Source: TPA_inf: Saccharomyces (taxonomy: Eukaryota). From it: a stretch of 64,000 nucleotides of DNA. Position numbers and translations under genes: made by a program. The notes beneath the pieces were generated by a model. The model saw only the letters and a program-made list of their open reading frames with translations. It was not told the origin of the DNA and searched no databases. Every line of letters begins with the position of its first letter. The first letter of the stretch is position 1. This document shows, piece after piece, positions 7,626 through 21,827 of this stretch. The stretch lies in assembly GCA_000146045.2 (NCBI GenBank), contig BK006948.2, forward strand, positions 960,001 through 1,024,000. Reading direction: 5' to 3'.

Positions 7626-8990
7626 TTTTTCTTTTCTATCGAAAAATGCAGGAAACAAGCTTGTATTTAGCGATGCTGTATTAATGTAAATTGGCTAATA
7701 GGGACGCCACTACCATAGATGAGCAATAGATTCGTAATATCAACCTCAAGAAAACTCATTAGGAGCAAGAAATGAAAAGTAAAAAAATGGTTGAAAGTAA
7801 AATCCATGCAATGAGATAAGGAAGAGAAAACTAATGAAAAAAATTTTTCAATTAAGGCATGGAAGGATCTTGAAATGAAGTGAAAGGAAAAATGGAAAAA
7901 CATGAAAAACTACACAAGCAAAGACCAGCATTATGGATGAAATTTTTTTTTTTTTTTCACGTCAGAAGTTAAGGCCATCTTTGAGTTCCAGGGTATCGCA
8001 TCTCAGGTCTTCCCACTTATGCTACGCATTCATGAAAATTTTTCAACTTTTTCTTTTGACCGTGGTGAAAGAAGATGCGCGTTTATGGGGAGAAAACCCG
8101 TAGAAAACGCGAAAAGCCGCTGAAAATACAAAGGGAAAAAGCCGCTCTCATTTCTTATTTAGGAAAAGAAATGAGCGGGGTAAACGGAGATCGCTGCGGA
8201 CGGAAGGCGCGAAATACCCACTGCCCTGAAGTCCAGCAGGTACTGAGGCTTGGATCTCAAAAGCGTGGGGTGCGTGGGCGTGCGCTGCTCGAGGCATTTT
8301 AGCCGCTGATAGTGCTGGCTCCAGGGGCCACTGCGCTTGCCATACCCGCACACGGGGTTCTTTGAGGCACTTAATTGACCGGAGATTTAAACGATATTGT
8401 CGTCGGGGATTAGAAGACATTACTGGTGGGGAACCCTTGATGATAATAGGAAATATATGCGCAGTATGCTCCATCGCTACGAGATGTTAGCAGCCTCAGA
8501 GCATCCTAATGGGAATATCAATGCATACACACCGGAGCTTGGATATGATAAACGAAATATTCTTGAATCGTGAGATCGCCTGTTTTCAAAACCGTTGGAG
8601 GCAGAAACAATTTTGTCACAAGATGGGCATTCTACCCCATCCTTGCTGTATTATTGTAGTCTCGCTTTCTTTTATGCTGGACAAATGAGACTACTGCACA
8701 TTTTTATACGTTCTTGGTTTTTTTTAAAGGTGTGGTTTCGGCATTATCCTGCCGCACGTTTCTTGGATAATTCATCCTGATTCTCTATTTTAAACGCTTC
8801 AGCCTATCAGGATTTGGTTTTGATACATACTGCAAGAGTGTATCTCGGGAACAGTCATTTATTCCGCAACAAACTTAATTGCGGAACGCGTTAGGCGATT
8901 TCTAGCATATATCAAATACCGTTCGCGATTTCTTCTGGGTTCGTCTCTTTTCTTTTAAATACTTATTAACGTACTCAAACAACTACACTT

Positions 8991-9302
8991 CGTTGTATCT
9001 CAGAATGAGATCCCTCAGTATGACAATACATCATTCTAAACGTTCGTAAAACACATATGAAACAACTTTATAACAAAGCGAACAAAATGGGCAACATGAG
9101 ATGAAACTCCGCGTCCCTTAGCTGAACTACCCAAACGTACGAATGCCTGAACAATTAGTTTAGATCCGAGATTCCGCGCTTCCATCATTTAGTATAATCC
9201 ATATTTTATATAATATATAGGATAAGTAACAGCCCGCGAATCAAGCTGGTAATCCGTTTTGACAGCTGGTTGCTTCCCCAAGACTGCTTATATTAGGATT
9301 GT
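8991..9302 (+). mobile_element. Ty3 sigma solo LTR, 5' ~310 bp (diverged), interrupted about 30 bp before its 3' end
   Basis: cgttgtatctcagaatgagat...cccaagactgcttatattaggattgt matches my recollection of the sigma consensus (TGTTGTATCTCAAAATGAGAT...CTAAGACTGTTTATATTAGGATTGT) at roughly 85-90% identity. The matching 3' tail reappears at 16359-16403. Confidence 0.7.
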
Positions 9303-10281
9303 TGAAAATATTGATTAACTTTTGTTAATTCCTACATACTCGGGGAAAGGTTCTAGTATATTCTGTATACCTAATCTTACAGTCTTTACTAATGGAATCC
9401 CAGGAATTATCAAAAAATTCACCTATCTTTCAAAATATTACTATTCACTCTGCTAAGATTATCGGAATAGGGACCAACTATCATCCGCTAATTACTGACA
9501 TTACCAAATGAGATCTGTGAATGGGCAAGATAAAAAACAAAAATTGAAATGTTTGACGTTATGTAAAACTATTAATTCCTTCGCTTTCGGCGGTCACAGA
9601 ATTTGCGTGTAGCTGACTCTTGTTCAATCAATATCATTTGTTACTTTATTTGAAAGTCTGTATTACTGCGCCTATTGTCATCCGTACCAAAGAACGTCAA
9701 AAAGAAACAAGATAATTTTTGTGCTTACACCATTTATAGATCACTGAGCCCAGAATATCGCTGGAGCTCAGTGTAAGTGGCATGAACACAACTCTGACTG
9801 ATCGCACATATTGCCGTTATCATAAATACTAGTTGTACTTGTCAATGCGACGAATGGCATCATGCCTATTATTACGTTCCTCTTTTTCCGTTTCATGTTT
9901 CCAGAATGCTATTGAATCTAACACTTCAATTATAAAAAAGAATAAATCCGCAATAATTTTAGGCTAATTGTTGTACTGTCAAGCGAACCTAATGGTTAAA
10001 ATTCAGAGGAACCTTCGACGTAGTCTGATCGCTACTTCTATATCTTATGTTCCCAGTCAATCAAAAGTTGATACTATAATAGCTGCCATTTATACCTGTT
10101 AGTTATGGCGATCGTTTATCACGACAAGCCCAATTTTGGTCGAGATGCAGCCAGTTGCCATCTATTGTTTCCAAAGCATTCGTTTGATTCGTATATGATA
10201 GGAAAACAAATTAAACGATGTATCAATTTGCTCATTCATCATAAATTGTGTTTGAGGCATTACTAAAAGAGCAGCAGATAT
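9303..10281. repeat. Unclassified LTR-like debris: a delta-like 3' end motif (about 9340-9420) followed by a delta-like 5' start motif (about 9455-9500) and about 0.8 kb of ORF-free sequence
   Basis: ggttctagtatattctgtatacctaat...taatggaatcccaggaattatc resembles a Ty1/Ty2 LTR end. ggaatagggaccaactatcatccgctaattact resembles an LTR start. No ORF of 60 aa or more in any frame. Confidence 0.4.
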
Positions 10282-10286
10282 CAGTC
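10282..10286. repeat. Left copy of the 5-bp target-site duplication (CAGTC) of the Ty2
   Basis: cagtc lies immediately 5' of the LTR start TGTTGG at 10287. An identical cagtc sits at 16246-16250, immediately 3' of the LTR end. Confidence 0.85.
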
Positions 10287-10618
10287 TGTTGGAATAAAAA
10301 TCAACTATCATCTACTAACTAGTATTTACGTTACTAGTATATTATCATATACGGTGTTAGAAGATGACGCAAATGATGAGAAATAGTCATCTAAATTAGT
10401 GGAAGCTGAAACGCAAGGATTGATAATGTAATAGGATCAATGAATATTAACATATAAAACGATGATAATAATATTTATAGAATTGTGTAGAATTGCAGAT
10501 TCCCTTTTATGGATTCCTAAATCCTCGAGGAGAACTTCTAGTATATCTACATACCTAATATTATAGCCTTAATCACAATGGAATCCCAACAATTACATCA
10601 AAATCCACATTGTCCACA
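10287..10618 (+). repeat. Ty2 5' LTR (delta-type, 332 bp)
   Basis: Begins TGTTGG and ends CCACA. The TYA ATG at 10578 lies inside the LTR, as in Ty1 and Ty2. Confidence 0.9.
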
Positions 10619-11894
10619 TGGTAGCGCCTATGCTTCGGTTACTTCTAAGGAAGTCCCATCAAATCAAGATCCGTTAGCCGTTTCAGCTTCCAATTTACCG
10701 GAATTTGATAGAGATTCCACTAAGGTTAATTCTCAAGAAGAGACAACACCTGGGACATCAGCTGTTCCAGAGAACCATCATCATGTCTCTCCTCAACCTG
10801 CTTCAGTACCACCTCCACAGAATGGACAGTACCAACAGCACGGCATGATGACCCCAAACAAAGCTATGGCTTCTAACTGGGCACATTACCAACAACCATC
10901 TATGATGACGTGTTCACATTATCAAACGTCACCTGCGTATTATCAACCGGACCCACACTATCCGCTGCCACAGTATATCCCACCGCTGAGTACTTCCTCA
11001 CCTGATCCAATCGATTCACAGGATCAACACTCTGAAGTACCTCAAGCTAAGACAAAGGTGAGAAATAATGTCTTACCACCACACCCACACACATCAGAAG
11101 AAAACTTTTCTACATGGGTTAAATTTTACATCAGATTTTTGAAGAACTCTAATCTCGGTGACATTATTCCAAATGACCAGGGTGAAATCAAAAGACAAAT
11201 GACTTATGAAGAACATGCGTATATATACAATACCTTCCAAGCATTTGCCCCATTTCATTTATTGCCAACATGGGTAAAACAAATTTTAGAAATTAATTAT
11301 TCTGACATCCTTACAGTCCTTTGTAAAAGTGTGTCCAAAATGCAAACTAACAATCAAGAATTAAAAGATTGGATAGCTCTTGCCAACCTTGAGTACAACG
11401 GAAGTACATCTGCTGATACATTTGAAATTACAGTCAGCACGATCATTCAAAGGCTAAAAGAAAACAATATCAATGTTAGCGACAGATTGGCCTGTCAACT
11501 AATACTTAAAGGTCTATCCGGTGATTTCAAATACCTACGTAATCAATATCGTACCAAAACGAACATGAAACTTTCCCAATTATTCGCTGAAATTCAATTA
11601 ATATATGACGAAAATAAAATCATGAATCTAAATAAACCGTCCCAATACAAACAACACAGCGAATACAAAAATGTTTCTCGCACATCTCCAAACACGACTA
11701 ACACGAAGGTTACAACTCGTAATTATCATAGAACAAATAGTTCAAAACCAAGAGCAGCAAAAGCTCACAATATTGCTACATCCAGTAAATTCTCAAGGGT
11801 GAACAATGATCACATTAATGAATCAACCGTTTCATCACAATACTTAAGCGATGACAACGAACTTAGTCTTAGGCCAGCAACAGAAAGAATCTAA
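10578..11894 (+). CDS. TYA: Ty2 Gag (TYA), 438 aa
   Basis: ORF beginning [10 protein letters not shown]. Pro/Gln/Tyr-rich N-terminal half and a conserved Gag core ([47 protein letters not shown]). Confidence 0.92.
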
Positions 11895-14800
11895 GCCAAC
11901 ACGCACAATAGACTCGAATGACGAACTACCTGATCACCTTCTTATTGATTCAGGAGCTTCGCAAACGCTTGTCAGATCAGCCCATTATTTACACCATGCA
12001 ACACCCAATTCTGAAATAAACATAGTCGATGCTCAAAAACAAGACATTCCTATAAATGCCATTGGTAATCTTCACTTCAACTTTCAGAACGGCACCAAAA
12101 CATCAATAAAAGCACTACACACACCAAACATAGCCTATGATCTATTAAGTTTGAGTGAGCTGACTAACCAAAATATTACTGCCTGCTTTACCAGAAACAC
12201 TTTAGAAAGATCGGATGGTACAGTACTAGCTCCCATAGTCAAACATGGAGACTTTTACTGGTTATCTAAAAAATACCTAATTCCTTCGCACATTTCAAAG
12301 CTAACAATAAACAACGTCAACAAAAGCAAAAGCGTAAATAAATATCCATATCCGTTAATACATCGAATGCTTGGACATGCTAACTTCCGAAGTATTCAGA
12401 AGTCTCTTAAGAAGAATGCAGTTACATATTTGAAAGAATCGGATATTGAATGGTCTAACGCTAGCACATATCAATGTCCTGACTGTCTAATCGGCAAAAG
12501 CACGAAACATAGGCATGTCAAAGGATCACGACTAAAGTACCAAGAATCATATGAGCCTTTTCAGTACTTGCATACCGATATATTTGGTCCTGTACATCAC
12601 TTACCGAAAAGTGCACCTTCTTACTTTATATCGTTTACAGATGAGAAAACCAGATTCCAATGGGTGTACCCATTACACGACCGTCGTGAAGAATCTATCC
12701 TCAATGTTTTTACATCGATATTAGCATTTATTAAGAACCAATTCAATGCTCGCGTTCTAGTTATCCAGATGGATCGTGGCTCCGAGTACACTAACAAAAC
12801 TCTTCATAAGTTCTTTACGAACAGAGGTATTACTGCATGCTATACAACCACGGCAGATTCTAGAGCACACGGTGTCGCTGAACGATTAAATCGTACTTTA
12901 TTAAACGATTGTCGCACACTGCTTCATTGCAGTGGTCTACCAAATCATCTATGGTTCTCAGCAGTCGAATTTTCTACTATAATCAGAAATTCATTAGTCT
13001 CACCAAAAAACGATAAATCTGCAAGACAACATGCAGGTTTAGCTGGACTGGACATTACTACTATACTACCTTTCGGTCAACCGGTTATAGTTAACAACCA
13101 TAATCCTGACTCGAAAATACATCCTCGTGGCATTCCAGGTTACGCCTTACATCCATCACGAAACTCTTATGGCTATATTATCTATCTTCCATCCTTAAAA
13201 AAGACAGTAGATACTACCAATTACGTTATATTACAAAACAATCAAACGAAATTGGACCAGTTCGACTACGATACACTCACTTTTGATGATGATCTCAATC
13301 GTTTAACAGCCCATAACCAATCTTTTATTGAACAAAATGAAACGGAGCAGTCATATGATCAAAATACAGAATCTGATCATGACTATCAATCGGAGATTGA
13401 AATAAACTCTGATCCTCTAGTGAACGATTTCTCGTCCCAATCATTGAACCCTTTACAATTAGACAAGGAACCAGTCCAAAAGGTACGTGCACCAAAAGAA
13501 GTTGATGCCGACATATCTGAATACAATATTCTTCCATCTACTATACGATCTCGTACACCCCATATCATTAATAAAGAGAGTACCGAAATGGGTGGTACCA
13601 TTGAATCAGATACTACTTCACCTAGACACTCGTCTACCTTCACTGCACGAAACCAAAAGCGACCTGGTAGTCCCAACGATATGATTGATTTGACCTCACA
13701 GGATAGAGTTAATTATGGACTTGAAAACATCAAAACTACACGTTTGGGTGGTACGGAGGAACCATATATTCAACGAAATAGTGATACAAATATCAAATAC
13801 AGGACTACAAACAGTACGCCCTCAATAGATGACCGTTCGTCCAACAGTGACTCCACTACTCCCATCATCTCCATAGAAACAAAGGCTGCATGTGATAATA
13901 CACCCTCCATTGATACGGATCCGCCAGAATATCGCTCTTCTGACCATGCGACTCCTAATATAATGCCTGACAAATCCTCAAAAAATGTTACGGCTGATTC
14001 TATTCTTGACGACCTCCCACTTCCTGACTTAACCCATAAATCTCCTACGGACACTTCTGATGTTTCAAAAGATATCCCACACATACACTCTCGTCAGACT
14101 AATTCCAGTTTGGGTGGTATGGATGATTCTAATGTTCTGACTACTACCAAAAGTAAGAAAAGATCATTAGAAGATAATGAAACTGAAATTGAGGTATCCC
14201 GAGACACATGGAATAATAAGAATATGAGAAGTCTGGAACCACCAAGATCGAAGAAACGCATAAATTTAATTGCAGCAATAAAAGGAGTGAAATCGATCAA
14301 ACCAGTTCGAACGACCTTAAGATATGATGAAGCAATTACATATAATAAAGACAACAAAGAAAAAGACAGATATGTTGAAGCTTATCATAAAGAAATTAGC
14401 CAACTATTGAAAATGAACACTTGGGATACAAACAAATATTATGATAGAAATGACATAGATCCTAAAAAAGTAATAAACTCAATGTTTATATTTAACAAGA
14501 AACGTGATGGTACACACAAAGCTAGATTTGTTGCAAGAGGCGACATTCAACACCCCGATACATATGATTCTGATATGCAATCCAATACCGTACATCACTA
14601 TGCACTGATGACGTCATTGTCAATCGCATTAGACAATGACTATTATATCACACAGCTGGACATATCCTCTGCTTACTTATATGCTGATATCAAAGAAGAA
14701 TTATACATAAGACCTCCACCACATTTAGGTTTGAATGATAAGTTACTACGTTTGAGAAAATCACTCTATGGTTTGAAACAAAGTGGTGCAAACTGGTATG

Positions 14801-15891
14801 AAACCATTAAATCATATTTAATAAATTGTTGCGACATGCAAGAAGTTCGCGGATGGTCATGCGTATTTAAGAATAGTCAAGTAACAATTTGCTTATTCGT
14901 TGATGATATGATATTATTCAGCAAAGACTTAAATGCAAATAAGAAAATCATAACAACACTCAAGAAACAATACGATACAAAGATAATAAATCTGGGTGAA
15001 GGTGATAACGAAATTCAGTACGACATACTTGGATTAGAGATCAAATATCAAAGAAGCAAGTACATGAAATTAGGTATGGAAAAATCCTTGACAGAAAAAT
15101 TACCCAAACTAAACGTACCTTTGAACCCAAAAGGAAAGAAACTTAGAGCTCCAGGTCAACCAGGTCATTATATAGACCAGGATGAACTAGAAATAGATGA
15201 AGATGAATACAAAGAGAAAGTGCATGAAATGCAAAAGTTGATTGGTCTAGCTTCATATGTTGGATATAAATTTAGATTTGACTTACTATACTACATCAAC
15301 ACACTTGCTCAACATATACTATTCCCCTCTAGGCAAGTTTTAGACATGACATATGAGTTAATACAATTCATGTGGGACACTAGAGATAAACAATTAATAT
15401 GGCACAAAAACAAACCTACCAAGCCAGATAATAAACTAGTCGCAATAAGCGATGCTTCATATGGTAACCAACCATATTACAAGTCACAAATTGGTAACAT
15501 TTTCCTACTCAACGGAAAAGTGATTGGAGGAAAGTCGACAAAGGCTTCGTTAACATGCACTTCAACTACAGAAGCAGAAATACACGCAGTCAGTGAAGCT
15601 ATACCGCTATTGAATAACCTCAGTCACCTTGTGCAAGAACTTAACAAGAAACCAATTATTAAAGGCTTACTTACTGATAGTAGATCAACGATCAGTATAA
15701 TTAAGTCTACAAATGAAGAGAAATTTAGAAACAGATTTTTTGGCACAAAGGCAATGAGACTTAGAGATGAAGTATCAGGTAATAATTTATACGTATACTA
15801 CATCGAGACCAAGAAGAACATTGCTGATGTGATGACAAAACCTCTTCCGATAAAAACATTTAAACTATTAACAAACAAATGGATTCATTAG
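11851..15891 (+). CDS. TYB: Ty2 Pol (TYB) reading frame; made as a Gag-Pol fusion by +1 frameshifting at 11878-11884; encodes protease, integrase, reverse transcriptase and RNase H
   Basis: 1346-aa frame. Aspartic protease motif [11 protein letters not shown]. Integrase zinc-finger region H..H..C..C with [13 protein letters not shown] and a DDE core. RT motifs including the YXDD box [11 protein letters not shown]-terminal RNase H ([10 protein letters not shown]). Confidence 0.92.
11878..11884 (+). promoter_or_regulatory. Programmed +1 ribosomal frameshift heptamer CTT-AGG-C joining TYA to TYB
   Basis: cttaggc lies in the TYA/TYB overlap. After the shift the pol frame continues [11 protein letters not shown], as in Ty1 and Ty2. 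Confidence 0.85.
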
Positions 15892-15913
15892 ATCTATTAC
15901 ATTATGGGTGGTA

Positions 15914-16245
15914 TGTTGGAATAAAAATCAACTATCATCTACTAACTAGTATTTACGTTACTAGTATATTATCATATACGGTGTTAGAAGATGACGCAAA
16001 TGATGAGAAATAGTCATCTAAATTAGTGGAAGCTGAAACGCAAGGATTGATAATGTAATAGGATCAATGAATATTAACATATAAAACGATGATAATAATA
16101 TTTATAGAATTGTGTAGAATTGCAGATTCCCTTTTATGGATTCCTAAATCCTCGAGGAGAACTTCTAGTATATCTACATACCTAATATTATAGCCTTAAT
16201 CACAATGGAATCCCAACAATTACATCAAAATCCACATTCTCCACA
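15914..16245 (+). repeat. Ty2 3' LTR (332 bp)
   Basis: Identical to the 5' LTR except for one G/C difference 7 bp from the end (cattgtccaca vs cattctccaca). Confidence 0.9.
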
Positions 16246-16250
16246 CAGTC
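16246..16250. repeat. Right copy of the Ty2 target-site duplication (CAGTC)
   Basis: cagtc immediately 3' of the LTR terminus CCACA. Confidence 0.85.
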
Positions 16251-16263
16251 ATACTCGTAAGAA

Positions 16264-16345
16264 TTGGTTGAATTTGAGATAATTGTTGGGATTCCATTGC
16301 TGATAGCTTTAATATTATGTATAAGGAATATACTAGAAATTCCGA
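16264..16345 (-). repeat. Inverted fragment of a delta-type LTR end
   Basis: tgagataattgttgggattccattgctgatagctttaatattatgtataaggaatatactagaa is the reverse complement of the LTR 3' end pattern (ttctagtatat...aatggaatcccaacaattatctca). Confidence 0.6.
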
Positions 16346-16358
16346 AAACTGCTTATAT

Positions 16359-16403
16359 CAAGACTTCAAGGAATCTGGTATTACTCGAGCCCGTAATACA
16401 ACA
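16359..16403 (+). mobile_element. 3' terminal remnant of the same Ty3 sigma LTR, ending 17 bp upstream of tRNA-Met
   Basis: caagac..ggtattactcgagcccgtaatacaaca matches the sigma 3' end (CAAGACACTCCGGTATTACTCGAGCCCGTAATACAACA). The 17-bp spacing to the tRNA is the canonical Ty3 integration distance. Confidence 0.7.
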
Positions 16404-16420
16404 CGTTTGATATTTTGTGC

Positions 16421-16493
16421 GCTTCAGTAGCTCAGTAGGAAGAGCGTCAGTCTCATAATCTGAAGGTCGAGAGTTCGAACCTCCCCTGGAGCA
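16421..16493 (+). tRNA. tRNA-Met (CAU), elongator type, no intron
   Basis: GCTTCAGTAGCTCAGTAGGAAGAGCGTCAGTCTCATAATCTGAAGGTCGAGAGTTCGAACCTCCCCTGGAGCA folds as a cloverleaf. The anticodon loop CTCATAA gives CAU. A-box and B-box (GGTCGAGAGTTCGAACC) are present. A downstream T-run provides the Pol III terminator. Confidence 0.93.
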
Positions 16494-19816: not shown

Positions 19817-20252
19817 TTGAGTATTTGAATCATCTACATCGCACCCAAAGAAATTTGATATCGTATAATTCAGCATATTATTATATACTGTGTAAAAAGA
19901 TGACATGGGAATTAAGAAACAATCATCAGATTTAGTGGATGCCGCAATACAAGGACTGATAATGTAAAGAAATAAAAGAGAACGCGACACAAAATGCAAG
20001 GAAAAATAATAAATGTTACGTAGAAATATCGGTTTCCTTTCCTTGATTTCTATATCTTAGTAATGAACTTCAAGAATATGCTTATTTTACCCAATTATAG
20101 CTTTAATCATCAATAGGATCTTAAAAATTATTCTAATATCCACCGAATTTTCGAAAAGTATACTAATTTAAACATTTGGTGTAAGCGTTTAGGTTGCTAA
20201 CGTAGCAGCAAACGTTGGTATCAATCACCACTTATTGCGCTACATTTCAACA
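19817..20252 (+). repeat. Diverged solo LTR (old delta- or tau-like), about 436 bp
   Basis: Internal blocks (catattattatatactgtgtaaaaagatgacatggg...atttagtggatgccgcaatacaaggactgataatgtaa) are collinear with delta-type LTR blocks. It ends ...tttcaaca, a CA terminus. Confidence 0.5.
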
Positions 20253-20259
20253 ATGTTCT

Positions 20260-20591
20260 TGAGAAATGGGTGAATGTTGAGATAATTGTTGGGATTCCAT
20301 TGTTGATAAAGGCTATAATATTAGGTATACAGAATATACTAGAAGTTCTCCTCGAGGGTCTAGGAATCCCCATAATGGAATCTATATTTCTATATACCAA
20401 TATTACGATTATTCCTCATTCCGTTTTATATGTTTCATTATCCTATTACATTATCAATCCTTGCACTTCAGCTTCCTCTAACTTCGATGACAGCTTCTCA
20501 TAACTTGTGTCATCATCTTAACACCGTATATGATAATATATTGATAGTATAACTATTAGTTGATAGACGATAGTGGATTTTTATTCCAACA
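20260..20591 (-). repeat. Solo delta LTR (332 bp) in minus orientation, flanked by a GTTCT target-site duplication
   Basis: Plus strand reads TGAGAAATGGGTGAATGTTGAGATAATTGTTGGGATTCC...TTTTTATTCCAACA, the reverse complement of a Ty1/Ty2 LTR. gttct at 20255-20259 and 20592-20596. Confidence 0.88.
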
Positions 20592-20682: not shown

Positions 20683-20787
20683 GGGCGTGTGGTCTAGTGG
20701 AATGATTCTCGCTTTGGGCGATCCCCCTGATCAAACAGGAGGAACAAAGCATGCGAGAGGCCCTGGGTTCAATTCCCAGCTCGCCCC
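20683..20787 (+). tRNA. tRNA-Pro (UGG) with a 33-nt intron
   Basis: GGGCGTGTGGTCTAGTGG..TCTCGCTTTGGG[intron cgatccccctgatcaaacaggaggaacaaagca]TGCGAGAGGCCCTGGGTTCAATTCCCAGCTCGCCCC. The intron sits 1 nt 3' of the UGG anticodon. Poly-T terminator downstream. Confidence 0.9.
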
Positions 20788-21827
20788 TTTTTTTGCAACT
20801 TCGTTTTAGACAGTTACTTAATTTTGTTTCTTAGGCACAACAATATTTATAAAAGAAGAATGTAAGTATGACGACGAAAACGAAAAGACTAATAGTTTCA
20901 TATAATACTAAACGATTTCAATTTTCGTTTTATATCCTTCCTATTCATAAATTTTATTTCGCTATGCCAATAATGAGTGGATGTATAGTTGATATCTGTT
21001 TCGATAATTTTAAAGTAGATAGTAAAATCTTACTGACATGAATAATCCGTCCAAAACTAGATTACTGTATACAAGCATATTTAAAAAAATAATGAAACTA
21101 TGATCAAAAAACTGTGCTACTACAGCGGTGTTGTTATCCGATACAACCGGATATTTTTCTTTTAATGAGTCTAAACCGTGATAGCTTCAGGTTAATACAA
21201 TCAAAAAAAGCTCAAATATTCTTTTAATGCCGCGTTCACAGATTCCAATTGAATACAACTAGGTAGTTCATTATATGAAGCCTTTGCTACTATTTTTCAC
21301 TATAGTCTGCCTTCACCTTAATGCAGACATCCACATATTTTAATCACTTTAAAATAAAAAGGAAGATATATTAGAAGCTATGATCCAATCTGTAAGCCAG
21401 ATTAAAATTCACGAACTCTTCTTTCATTTGAATTGAATGCTTTGAGTTGGGGTAGATTATCGCAAATTACTCATCACATTTATTGACTACGAACTTGCTG
21501 ATGTCCTTTTTTTATTTATATTTTTCTTCAGTGAAGCGATTTTTTTTTTACACAGACCAAGACGGAAAAAAGTAGCTAAGGAAGAAAACAAAATCATGAA
21601 AAAAATGTGAAGTGATCATGCACATCGCATCAACTTAAACATTGGCTTAGAGATATATAGAGTTAGAGTTTACGGCAACCTTTAAGCACCAATACCTTTT
21701 GGCATAGTCTAAAGACCTGGTTCTTAATTTTAAACAAATTTAACTAAAGATTTCCCTATCAAAGAAGTAACGAGTTGACAGATTTTCTCAAAATAAATCG
21801 ATACTGCATTTCTAGGCATATCCAGCG

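Follow-up and report, generated by a model that had tools for sequence, protein, structure and literature searches.

Nested Ty debris beside tRNA genes is textbook material. Ty3 integrates within 1–4 nt of the Pol III start, and its LTR ends ∼16–19 bp upstream of the tRNA gene (PMC5911963). LTR–LTR recombination at Ty3 LTRs is exemplified by segmental duplications of 115 kb mediated by YORWsigma3 and YORWsigma4 (Payen et al. 2008, PMC2518615). The closest described object is the nest published as chrXV_s397+_TY3/YORWsigma4 (Carr, Bensasson & Bergman 2012, PMC3511429, Files S2–S3), in which REannotate united two Ty3 LTR fragments (sacCer2 968989–969299, score 1953, and 976337–976400) as one solo LTR, chrXV_s397, that encloses YORWdelta22, YORWTy2-2 and an inverted Ty1 fragment. 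In that work, the old elements of the nest were scored as fixed and the Ty2, labelled TY2, as polymorphic (5 of 17 SGRP strains).

We analyzed a stretch of 64,000 nucleotides (the window) whose gene content and gene sizes fit the RPA190 → TYE7 → REV1 region of Saccharomyces cerevisiae S288C chromosome XV, and in which the sacCer2 Ty annotation coincides with our positions at an offset of ∼959,998. A first-pass annotation of the window had described one diverged sigma LTR split by nested insertions upstream of tRNA-Met; since this nest is in Carr et al. (2012), the claim was already known, and the nest has been since 2012. As shown in Table 1, the two analyses concern the same object and agree on both Ty3 LTR fragments, YORWdelta22, YORWTy2-2 and the inverted Ty1 fragment. 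Unlike the present analysis, the published annotation counts both fragments toward a single solo LTR and annotates nothing at 969430–970283, and it contains neither a flag on the overlap of the two fragments nor the recombinant 3′ piece nor the origin of the 854 bp between them. Because that annotation was reference-based, a second, younger sigma was not seen. A literature search on the name YORWTy2-2 found nothing, and one on YOR343W-A/B returned unrelated papers only. The results below indicate that the “split LTR” is a mosaic shaped by recombination rather than a clean stack of nested insertions.

Table 1. Features of the nest upstream of tRNA-Met (window positions)
Feature	Position	Strand	Remarks
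Old Ty3 LTR piece A (SGD YORWsigma4)	8991–9302	+	LTR positions 1–302
Ty1-type delta fragment (YORWdelta22)	9303–9432	+	LTR positions about 200–332
Segment U, non-Ty DNA	9433–10286		Inverted copy of DNA between tRNA-Pro and REV1 in S. paradoxus
ORF Y remnant, first ∼37 codons	9786–9896	−	Similarity to an ORF of another strain (L037)
Ty2 target-site duplication, left (CAGTC)	10282–10286		Repeat flanking element
Full-length Ty2 (YORWTy2-2)	10287–16245	+	LTRs, target duplication, ORFs
Ty2 LTRs	10287–10618, 15914–16245	+	332 bp each, 1 mismatch
TYA	10578–11894	+	Pfam TYA
TYB ORF	11851–15891	+	Within Ty2
Ty2 target-site duplication, right (CAGTC)	16246–16250		Repeat flanking element
Inverted Ty1-type delta fragment	16259–16343	−	LTR positions about 245–332
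Old Ty3 LTR 3′ piece O	16340–16376	+	LTR positions about 275–313
Last 27 nt of LTR, recombinant part	16377–16403	+	Identical to young Ty3 LTR B of other strains
17-bp spacer	16404–16420		First 5 bp, CGTTT, target duplication of sigma B
tRNA-Met(CAU) gene	16421–16493	+	ARAGORN; Rfam tRNA model 62.5 bits

The 5′ piece, A, proved to be the diverged sigma 5′ part that had been proposed, with 84.9% identity to canonical Ty3 LTR positions 2–302 compared with 69.5% to the Ty3p LTR, and it was found in 24 of the 27 S. cerevisiae assemblies that we fetched. Another LTR family as a better fit had been named as the alternative to look for; both pieces still fall in TY3 when RepeatMasker is run with a library of Ty1–Ty5 plus Ty3p (Carr et al. 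2012, PMC3511429). The 5′ terminus at 8991 reads (C/T)GTTGTATC, the first base being C in this strain and T in others, and the 3′ terminus at 16393–16403 reads GTAATACAACA, which together give the Ty3 inverted repeat TGTTGTA...TACAACA even though the 3′ end derives from a younger copy. As originally annotated, 17 bp lie between the sigma 3′ terminus and tRNA-Met. The same distance separates the gene from the native old 3′ piece (14 loci) and from the young LTR (11) in other strains, and it is consistent with Ty3 integration at a Pol III start site.

The Ty2 carries the expected parts of a full-length element (LTRs, a 5-bp duplication, and gag and pol ORFs with Pfam matches to TYA, RVT_2 and rve), and TGGTAGCGCC, the tRNA-iMet primer site, directly follows its 5′ LTR. 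It is missing from all 27 of the other S. cerevisiae assemblies fetched; one of these (L002) aligns collinearly with the window once Ty2 is taken out and has a single CAGTC, i.e. an empty site. The annotated complete Ty2 is thus borne out, and by this comparison it is a genuine late nested insertion, the sole clean one in the nest. No record matched the Ty2 Gag protein exactly when it was looked up to obtain other Ty loci as repeat references.

The two delta fragments are of a different kind. YORWdelta22 (chrXV_st201+_TY1, 969300–969429) aligns to Ty2 LTR positions 212–317 and keeps its 3′ terminus, ...TCTTTCA, at 9432; the inverted fragment (chrXV_st202-_TY1, 976257–976336) matches Ty2 LTR positions 246–322 on the minus strand, its 3′ terminus pointing toward U (fragment names from Carr et al. 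2012, PMC3511429). Their outer ends meet sigma internally in the LTR, at ATTGT for YORWdelta22 (read from the sequence) and at TTC(C) for the inverted fragment, so that both joins show 4–5 nt of sigma/delta microhomology. Since neither outer delta terminus lies at a sigma junction, the nest gives no record of a canonical Ty1 integration into sigma. The earlier count of at least three successive insertions into one site is right only in part: Ty2 alone is a clean nested insertion, and the delta joins are not integration junctions. The delta-like debris, Ty2 and inverted delta listed between the sigma pieces are all present, but the list omitted 854 bp of non-Ty DNA.

The 3′ piece covers ∼64 bp (16340–16403) and is collinear with Ty3 LTR positions 277–340 at 82.8% identity. 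Its end had been placed correctly in the first-pass annotation, whereas the start given there (16359, for ∼45 bp) was too far downstream; the RepeatMasker fragment has the same span as ours (Carr et al. 2012, PMC3511429). The terminal 27 nt, GGTATTACTCGAGCCCGTAATACAACA, match the canonical Ty3 LTR exactly, and the native old piece of other strains differs from them at 6 of 27 positions. The first 33 nt are identical to the native old piece of one strain (L030), and the 7 differences that separate the window from native O all lie at positions 34–61 of the 64-mer.

Comparison of 27 S. cerevisiae assemblies placed this piece in an allele series. The arrangement of A, an intervening block and native O was found in 13 of them and in one short contig, with native O, old and diverged, ending exactly 17 bp from the tRNA gene. 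A complete LTR, B, is additionally present in 11 assemblies; it is 98% identical to Ty3 and has CGTTT on both flanks, a perfect target duplication, so that the order in one strain (L003) is ...ACACA, CGTTT, sigma B, CGTTT, GATATTTTGTGC and then the tRNA gene. An O/B chimera is carried by L002 and the window, a single A/B chimeric LTR without the block by L008, and an A-like conversion patch within B by L006. A locus considered as a full-length Ty3 at tRNA-Met (L031) was dropped because its scaffold is N-gapped. Looking for each layer in other strains, as had been suggested, thus revealed native O, B, the chimera and the Ty2 empty site. On these alignments, the 27 nt next to the tRNA gene belong not to the diverged LTR but to a second, younger Ty3 LTR and were gained by recombination, and the 3′ piece of this strain is an old/young recombinant.

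Two other accounts of the sigma pieces have to be weighed. The 3′ piece of this strain might be original, with the others mutated, or might have been repaired by ectopic conversion in a lineage that never held sigma B. S288C does have other young sigma donors, such as YORWsigma3 115 kb away (PMC2518615), and the A-like patch in L006 indicates that conversion between sigmas occurs at the locus. However, 6 changes in 27 nt against none in the adjacent 33 nt and ∼1–2% in the flanks cannot be explained by ordinary mutation, 11 assemblies have a complete B precisely here, and a simple O × B crossover gives the exact observed product together with the 345-bp length difference. We consider an origin without sigma B very improbable, although the chimera could alternatively stem from ectopic gene conversion by another young sigma. 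The other account concerns A and O, which had been read as two halves of one sigma, collinear and contiguous. It would have one old Ty3 solo LTR at −17 cut at about position 303 by a Ty1-type insertion, with later ones including Ty2 inside it and the 19 nt at 16340–16358 a templated junctional duplication. The pieces are of the same family, collinear, in the same orientation and of comparable divergence, and Carr et al. (2012, PMC3511429) joined them; in their alignment the joined pieces form one LTR with private 19-nt and 7-nt insertions, where ...GGATTG is followed by the private 19-nt insert and then TCAAGAC, contiguous at 303/304, and 16359 (CAAGAC) directly succeeds 9302 (GGATTGT). This register, which scores by hand about equal to the overlapping one, would favor one LTR bearing a duplication at the junction. 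The outer flanks of the old pieces (CACTT left of A and CGTTT right of O) match at 3 of 5 positions, which fits a single old integration, if weakly. Contiguity is not supported, however. Together, A (312 nt) and the 3′ piece (64 nt) make 376 nt, which exceeds the 340 nt of the LTR, and about 27 LTR positions of the 3′ piece (∼275–303) are already present in A at 9277–9302, an overlap beyond a 5-bp target duplication, so that the pieces do not complement each other as parts of one LTR. The shared stretch is a 22-nt match at 82%, equalled in 2 of 20,000 shuffles, and its 11-mer ACTGCTTATAT occurs in the whole 64 kb at 9283 and 16348 only. Secondary deletions could only have taken sigma sequence away, yet A and O overlap. 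The deltas join sigma at their own LTR positions ∼200 and ∼245, where neither a Ty1 integration junction nor a 5-bp duplication is seen and no inserted terminus abuts the LTR, and the tRNA-proximal 27 nt are not those of the old LTR. From the overlap and the microhomology at the outer joins, two LTR copies are likelier than one LTR cut once; a single split LTR seems to us unlikely, and A and O are more likely remnants of two copies, either the LTR pair of a single Ty3 or two solo LTRs in tandem.

A single split LTR would also leave only transposon-derived DNA between its parts, whereas 9433–10286 (854 bp, with a few further U bases beyond Ty2 at 16251–16258) is unique DNA that is syntenic in S. 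paradoxus. It is 77.2% identical over 852 bp to S. paradoxus L025_rc 14886–14084, where the entire segment lies downstream of tRNA-Pro; S. kudriavzevii and S. mikatae have parts of U plus the ORF, also downstream of tRNA-Pro, and upstream of tRNA-Met S. kudriavzevii and S. paradoxus have neither sigma nor U. The segment does sit amid LTR debris, and 9417–9596 has a second copy in the window (73% identical to the reverse complement of 20869–21043), as an unrecognised repeat or degenerate transposon fragment might. Such an identity is nonetheless hardly credible: RepeatMasker with all Ty families finds no transposable element in U (Carr et al. 2012, PMC3511429), its sole counterparts are the syntenic ones between tRNA-Pro and REV1 in those three species, and in other strains the U block contains a protein-coding ORF with a Torulaspora homologue. 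An internal Ty fragment was likewise rejected, as U has no BLAST match to the Ty2 interior and no long ORFs (none of at least 60 aa). We lean toward the view that U is a remnant of 2–2.5 kb of single-copy DNA that, in the S. cerevisiae lineage, was moved, inverted, over 4.3 kb from downstream of tRNA-Pro to a place among the Ty LTR fragments upstream of tRNA-Met, likely through Ty-mediated ectopic recombination or gap repair, after which the original was lost. Of two other routes, two successive Ty-mediated inversions were rejected, as they predict, on paper, a delta 5′ end rather than a 3′ end at the right side of U, and transcript capture (read-through or cDNA) agrees with the right delta, which ends near the Ty1 transcription start, but not with the other junction, which is without a poly(A) trace.

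Taken together, these data suggest a probable history in which the nest is a Ty graveyard in a Pol III-targeted zone, first built up by insertions and later remodelled through recombination. At the tRNA start, an ancient Ty3-family integration, or two of them, would have left A (1–302) and O (∼275–340); between these a block would then have arrived in which U is flanked by a delta 3′ part on one side and an inverted one on the other. U itself would derive from downstream of tRNA-Pro, where ∼0.9 kb is now deleted in S. cerevisiae, and the block, larger and with an intact ORF in some strains, would have collapsed to 854 bp here. We infer these three stages. The later ones, which allele comparison makes directly evident, are the integration of a young Ty3 at the same position with the CGTTT duplication, giving solo LTR B; recombination of O with B within their 3′ ends in this lineage, with loss of one 345-bp unit, giving the chimera; and insertion of Ty2 into U with the CAGTC duplication.

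The locus shares with position-specific Ty3 integration the ends TGTTGTATC...TACAACA, the 5-bp duplication (CGTTT, for sigma B) and the 17-bp spacing; the same position was struck repeatedly and older copies were displaced upstream, which is nothing unusual. YORWsigma4 served as a recombination substrate, despite its divergence, both here and in Payen et al. (2008). The natural alleles show A × B and O × B crossovers and a conversion patch that resemble the LTR–LTR recombination of that study, but they are local 0.35–1.5-kb deletions in natural populations, whereas the duplications of Payen et al. were laboratory-selected. With Ty2 subtracted, Ty2 and the deltas lie within ∼1 kb of the tRNA gene, as expected of Ty1/Ty2 hot zones (PMC5911963). 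Unlike those zones, however, the nest holds relocated single-copy DNA between two inward-facing delta 3′ ends, and a segment bracketed in this way is not a standard integration product.

As a discovery the nest carries little weight, since both the standard S288C annotation and a published re-annotation already include it. It does give a caution: where collinear LTR pieces are “defragmented” and layers tallied as insertions, recombined loci can be misread, as such loci are shaped by LTR–LTR crossovers, microhomology joins and ectopic recombination as much as by integration. In compact form, the natural alleles at this one tRNA gene document how Ty3 targeted it repeatedly and how recombination then eroded the result; they span the pre-insertion state, the young-LTR state and two distinct recombinant deletions. 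Studies of Ty-mediated genome rearrangement may find the relocated host DNA of interest; the relocation of U, if true, would be a natural case of Ty elements moving a host gene that survives only in a Ty hot spot.

That gene, ORF Y, is left in the window within a 42-aa ORF at 9768–9896 that starts MKRKKRNVIIGMM..., matching MKRKKRNVMIGMMM... of the L037 ORF. It has no Pfam family and no relative in PDB; its database clusters number only 3, and an AlphaFold model from a 3-sequence alignment had a mean pLDDT of 36.6. It does not lie at the KHS1/KHR1 killer-gene loci treated in PMC10542562, and a preprint on the core gene set makes no mention of it near TYE7. In some strains the U block is 2.3 kb long, and in this larger version ORF Y is complete (323–331 aa), taxonomically patchy and secreted-looking, with several dibasic KR sites.

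In the window, genes for an RNA polymerase I large subunit (1664 aa), a bHLH protein (291 aa) and a REV1-type polymerase (985 aa) follow one another as RPA190, TYE7 and REV1 should on S. cerevisiae chromosome XV. All of the features named in the first-pass annotation (sigma pieces, delta debris, Ty2, inverted delta fragment and tRNA-Met) were found. The nest is exactly the object listed in the S288C Ty re-annotation of Carr, Bensasson & Bergman 2012 (PMC3511429, Files S2 and S3; sacCer2 coordinate = window coordinate + about 959,998), and the claim is therefore already in the literature. YORWsigma4 also appears in PMC2518615 as a named Ty3 LTR beside a tRNA gene that served as a recombination substrate. 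The locus is ordinary and annotated before, and novelty may lie only in the origin of its unannotated DNA and the ORF of that DNA in other strains.

Features of the Ty nest and its surroundings, with names, sacCer2 coordinates and strain counts from PMC3511429
Feature	Window	Strand	Published name	sacCer2	Remarks
Ty3 LTR, 5' piece	8991-9302	+	chrXV_s397+_TY3 (YORWsigma4)	968989-969299	solo, inactive, fixed 36/36 (both fragments)
Delta fragment, left	9303-9432	+	chrXV_st201+_TY1 (YORWdelta22)	969300-969429	nested; solo, inactive, fixed 23/23
Segment U	9433-10286				854 bp
Ty2	10287-16245	+	chrXV_i13+_TY2 (YORWTy2-2)	970284-976238	nested; full length, active, in 5/17 scored strains; two 332-bp LTRs, 1 base difference; CAGTC both sides
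Delta fragment, right	16259-16343	-	chrXV_st202-_TY1	976257-976336	nested; solo, inactive, fixed 16/16
Ty3 LTR, 3' piece	16340-16403	+	chrXV_s397+_TY3 (YORWsigma4)	976337-976400	17 bp to tRNA-Met
tRNA-Met(CAU) gene	16421-16493
Degenerate delta	19872-20177	+	st203
Delta, nearly complete	20255-20591	-	st204		polymorphic across fetched strains
Intron-containing tRNA gene	20683-20787	+			33-nt intron (ARAGORN -i)
Remnant of U	20869-21043				last ~175 bp

With the LTRs of the Carr et al. supplements as references, the 5' sigma piece matched positions 2–302 of the canonical Ty3 LTR at 84.9% identity and Ty3p at only 69.5%, and no other LTR family matched it better. The 3' piece is indeed a Ty3 LTR end 17 bp before tRNA-Met, but it is longer than the 16359–16403 first assigned to it: both RepeatMasker (Carr et al.) and our own alignment start it at 16340, and its 64 nt are collinear with LTR positions ~275–340. 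Positions ~275–303 therefore occur twice, with CCCAAGACTGCTTATATTAGGA at 9277–9298 pairing with CCGAAAACTGCTTATATCAAGA at 16342–16363, a match whose score was reached in only 2 of 20,000 shuffles; within the window, the 11-mer ACTGCTTATAT is confined to the two sigma pieces. The two pieces had been described as contiguous halves of one LTR. This holds in the register of Carr et al., where 9302 is directly continued by 16359, but in the collinear register they overlap, and the scores do not tell the two registers apart.

In the Carr et al. multiple alignment, joining the pieces into a single element requires a private 19-nt and a private 7-nt insertion at the overlap site. The delta fragments have their outer ends at LTR positions ~200 (left) and ~245 (right), with their genuine 3' termini facing inward, and the sigma/delta joins have microhomologies of 4–5 nt (ATTGT left, TTC(C) right); the joins are not integration junctions. 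Junctions of the microhomology type are left by deletion or end joining, processes that can only take sigma sequence away, and for this reason two LTR copies explain the overlap better than one LTR cut once. We consider it fairly probable that the 5' piece and the old 3' piece are remnants of two copies, a single LTR being the less probable origin. The two copies could be the LTR pair of a single old Ty3 or solo LTRs in tandem, the latter resembling the present-day pair of old 3' piece and young LTR in other strains.

Orthologous intervals were fetched via TYE7 and near-identical variants from 27 S. cerevisiae assemblies, S. paradoxus, S. mikatae and S. kudriavzevii, with one N-gapped scaffold (L031) left out of allele scoring. 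Thirteen assemblies and one short contig carry the 5' piece, the block (segment U between the two delta 3' parts) and an old 3' piece whose diverged end (GGTATTACACGAAGCCGTAAAAAGACA) lies exactly 17 bp from the tRNA. Eleven assemblies have, in addition, a complete CGTTT-flanked LTR (sigma B), 98% identical to canonical Ty3, that separates the old piece from the tRNA. The S288C-type allele, found in the window and one assembly (L002), is 345 bp shorter than these and has a single 64-nt piece, the first 33 nt of which are identical to the old piece and the last 27 nt to the young LTR; all seven of its differences from the old piece fall within positions 34–61. Such a piece is the expected product of a crossover between old piece and young LTR. 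The terminus that gives the 17-bp spacing in the window therefore derives from a second, later Ty3 integration and not from the diverged sigma. One further assembly (L008) has a single chimeric LTR of old 5' piece and sigma B without the block. In L006, a sigma B bears a short patch of old-LTR variants (CATCCCGTGAATCAAGCTGATAAACAG; L006_rc about 9090–9120), which suggests gene conversion between sigma copies 1.5 kb apart.

The Ty2 proved complete, with ORFs matching TYA, integrase and RVT_2. It is absent from all 27 fetched S. cerevisiae assemblies, and L002 is its exact empty site. S288C-type alleles are set apart from most others by a ~24-bp indel (TAGATAAGTAATTAGGTAATGAGAAT-like; window 16258/16259 versus L003_rc 8690–8720) where the inverted delta fragment has its inner end.

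Segment U is free of Ty annotation in Carr et al., does not match the Ty2 interior and lacks long ORFs. S. paradoxus CBS432 has a single copy of all of U (77.2% over 852 bp), in inverted orientation, between REV1 and an intron-containing tRNA gene, and parts of it occupy the equivalent place in S. kudriavzevii and S. mikatae. At that place the window (20860–20867) lacks ~0.9 kb relative to S. paradoxus and keeps only the remnant, 73% identical to 9417–9596. Upstream of tRNA-Met, neither sigma nor U is present in S. kudriavzevii or S. paradoxus. The simplest reading is that U is unique DNA that once lay downstream of the tRNA-Pro gene and was moved into the Ty nest, probably in a Ty-mediated event, since each of its ends adjoins a delta 3' terminus.

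The first-pass observation is for the most part correct, but three nested insertions, one after another, into one LTR are too simple a history for the overlap, the microhomology joins at internal LTR positions, the relocated DNA and the younger LTR end. The locus records a minimum of two Ty3 integrations and of two recombinational deletions, together with Ty1-type elements (two or more), a single relocation of host DNA and one Ty2 insertion that is clean and recent.

Upstream of tRNA-Met, L036 (GCA_030036075.1) is arranged differently and on a much larger scale, with additional delta fragments and a full-length Ty1-type element (71–84% identity to the Ty2 interior), which shows that the site is still receiving insertions. 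The S. cerevisiae assembly L024 (GCA_000976965.3) has the S. paradoxus CBS432 structure from RPA190 to beyond TYE7, at 81–86% identity to the window and with neither sigma nor U upstream of tRNA-Met, yet from the tRNA-Pro gene on its identity to the window is 99.3%; this has the look of an introgression from S. paradoxus whose breakpoint falls between window 19884 and 20683. The orthologous S. mikatae tRNA-Met has its own 5'-truncated sigma-like LTR adjoined by an inverted delta 5' terminus (L011_rc 8959–9205), with variants closer to the 5' piece of S. cerevisiae than to the young Ty3 LTR.

Neither ARAGORN with default settings nor Rfam at its gathering score detected the intron-containing tRNA gene, which lies directly downstream of the st203 and st204 deltas. 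With -i, ARAGORN reports it as Ala-TGC; by eye, its anticodon loop CUUUGGG is read as Pro-UGG. In S. mikatae and S. kudriavzevii its conservation is 84–89%.

In five S. cerevisiae assemblies (L032, L034, L037, L038 and L039), the block upstream of tRNA-Met is larger: it holds a second partial copy as well as an intact ORF of 323–331 aa (e.g. L037 12212–13207), of which the window retains only the first ~37 codons (9896–9786). Neither Pfam nor PDB gave a relative for the ORF, a structure model was too poor in quality for use, and only three database clusters contain it (S. cerevisiae, one metagenomic and Torulaspora globosa). Its N-terminus is signal-peptide-like, it has several KR dibasic sites, and S. 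kudriavzevii and S. mikatae have DNA homologues between tRNA-Pro and REV1.
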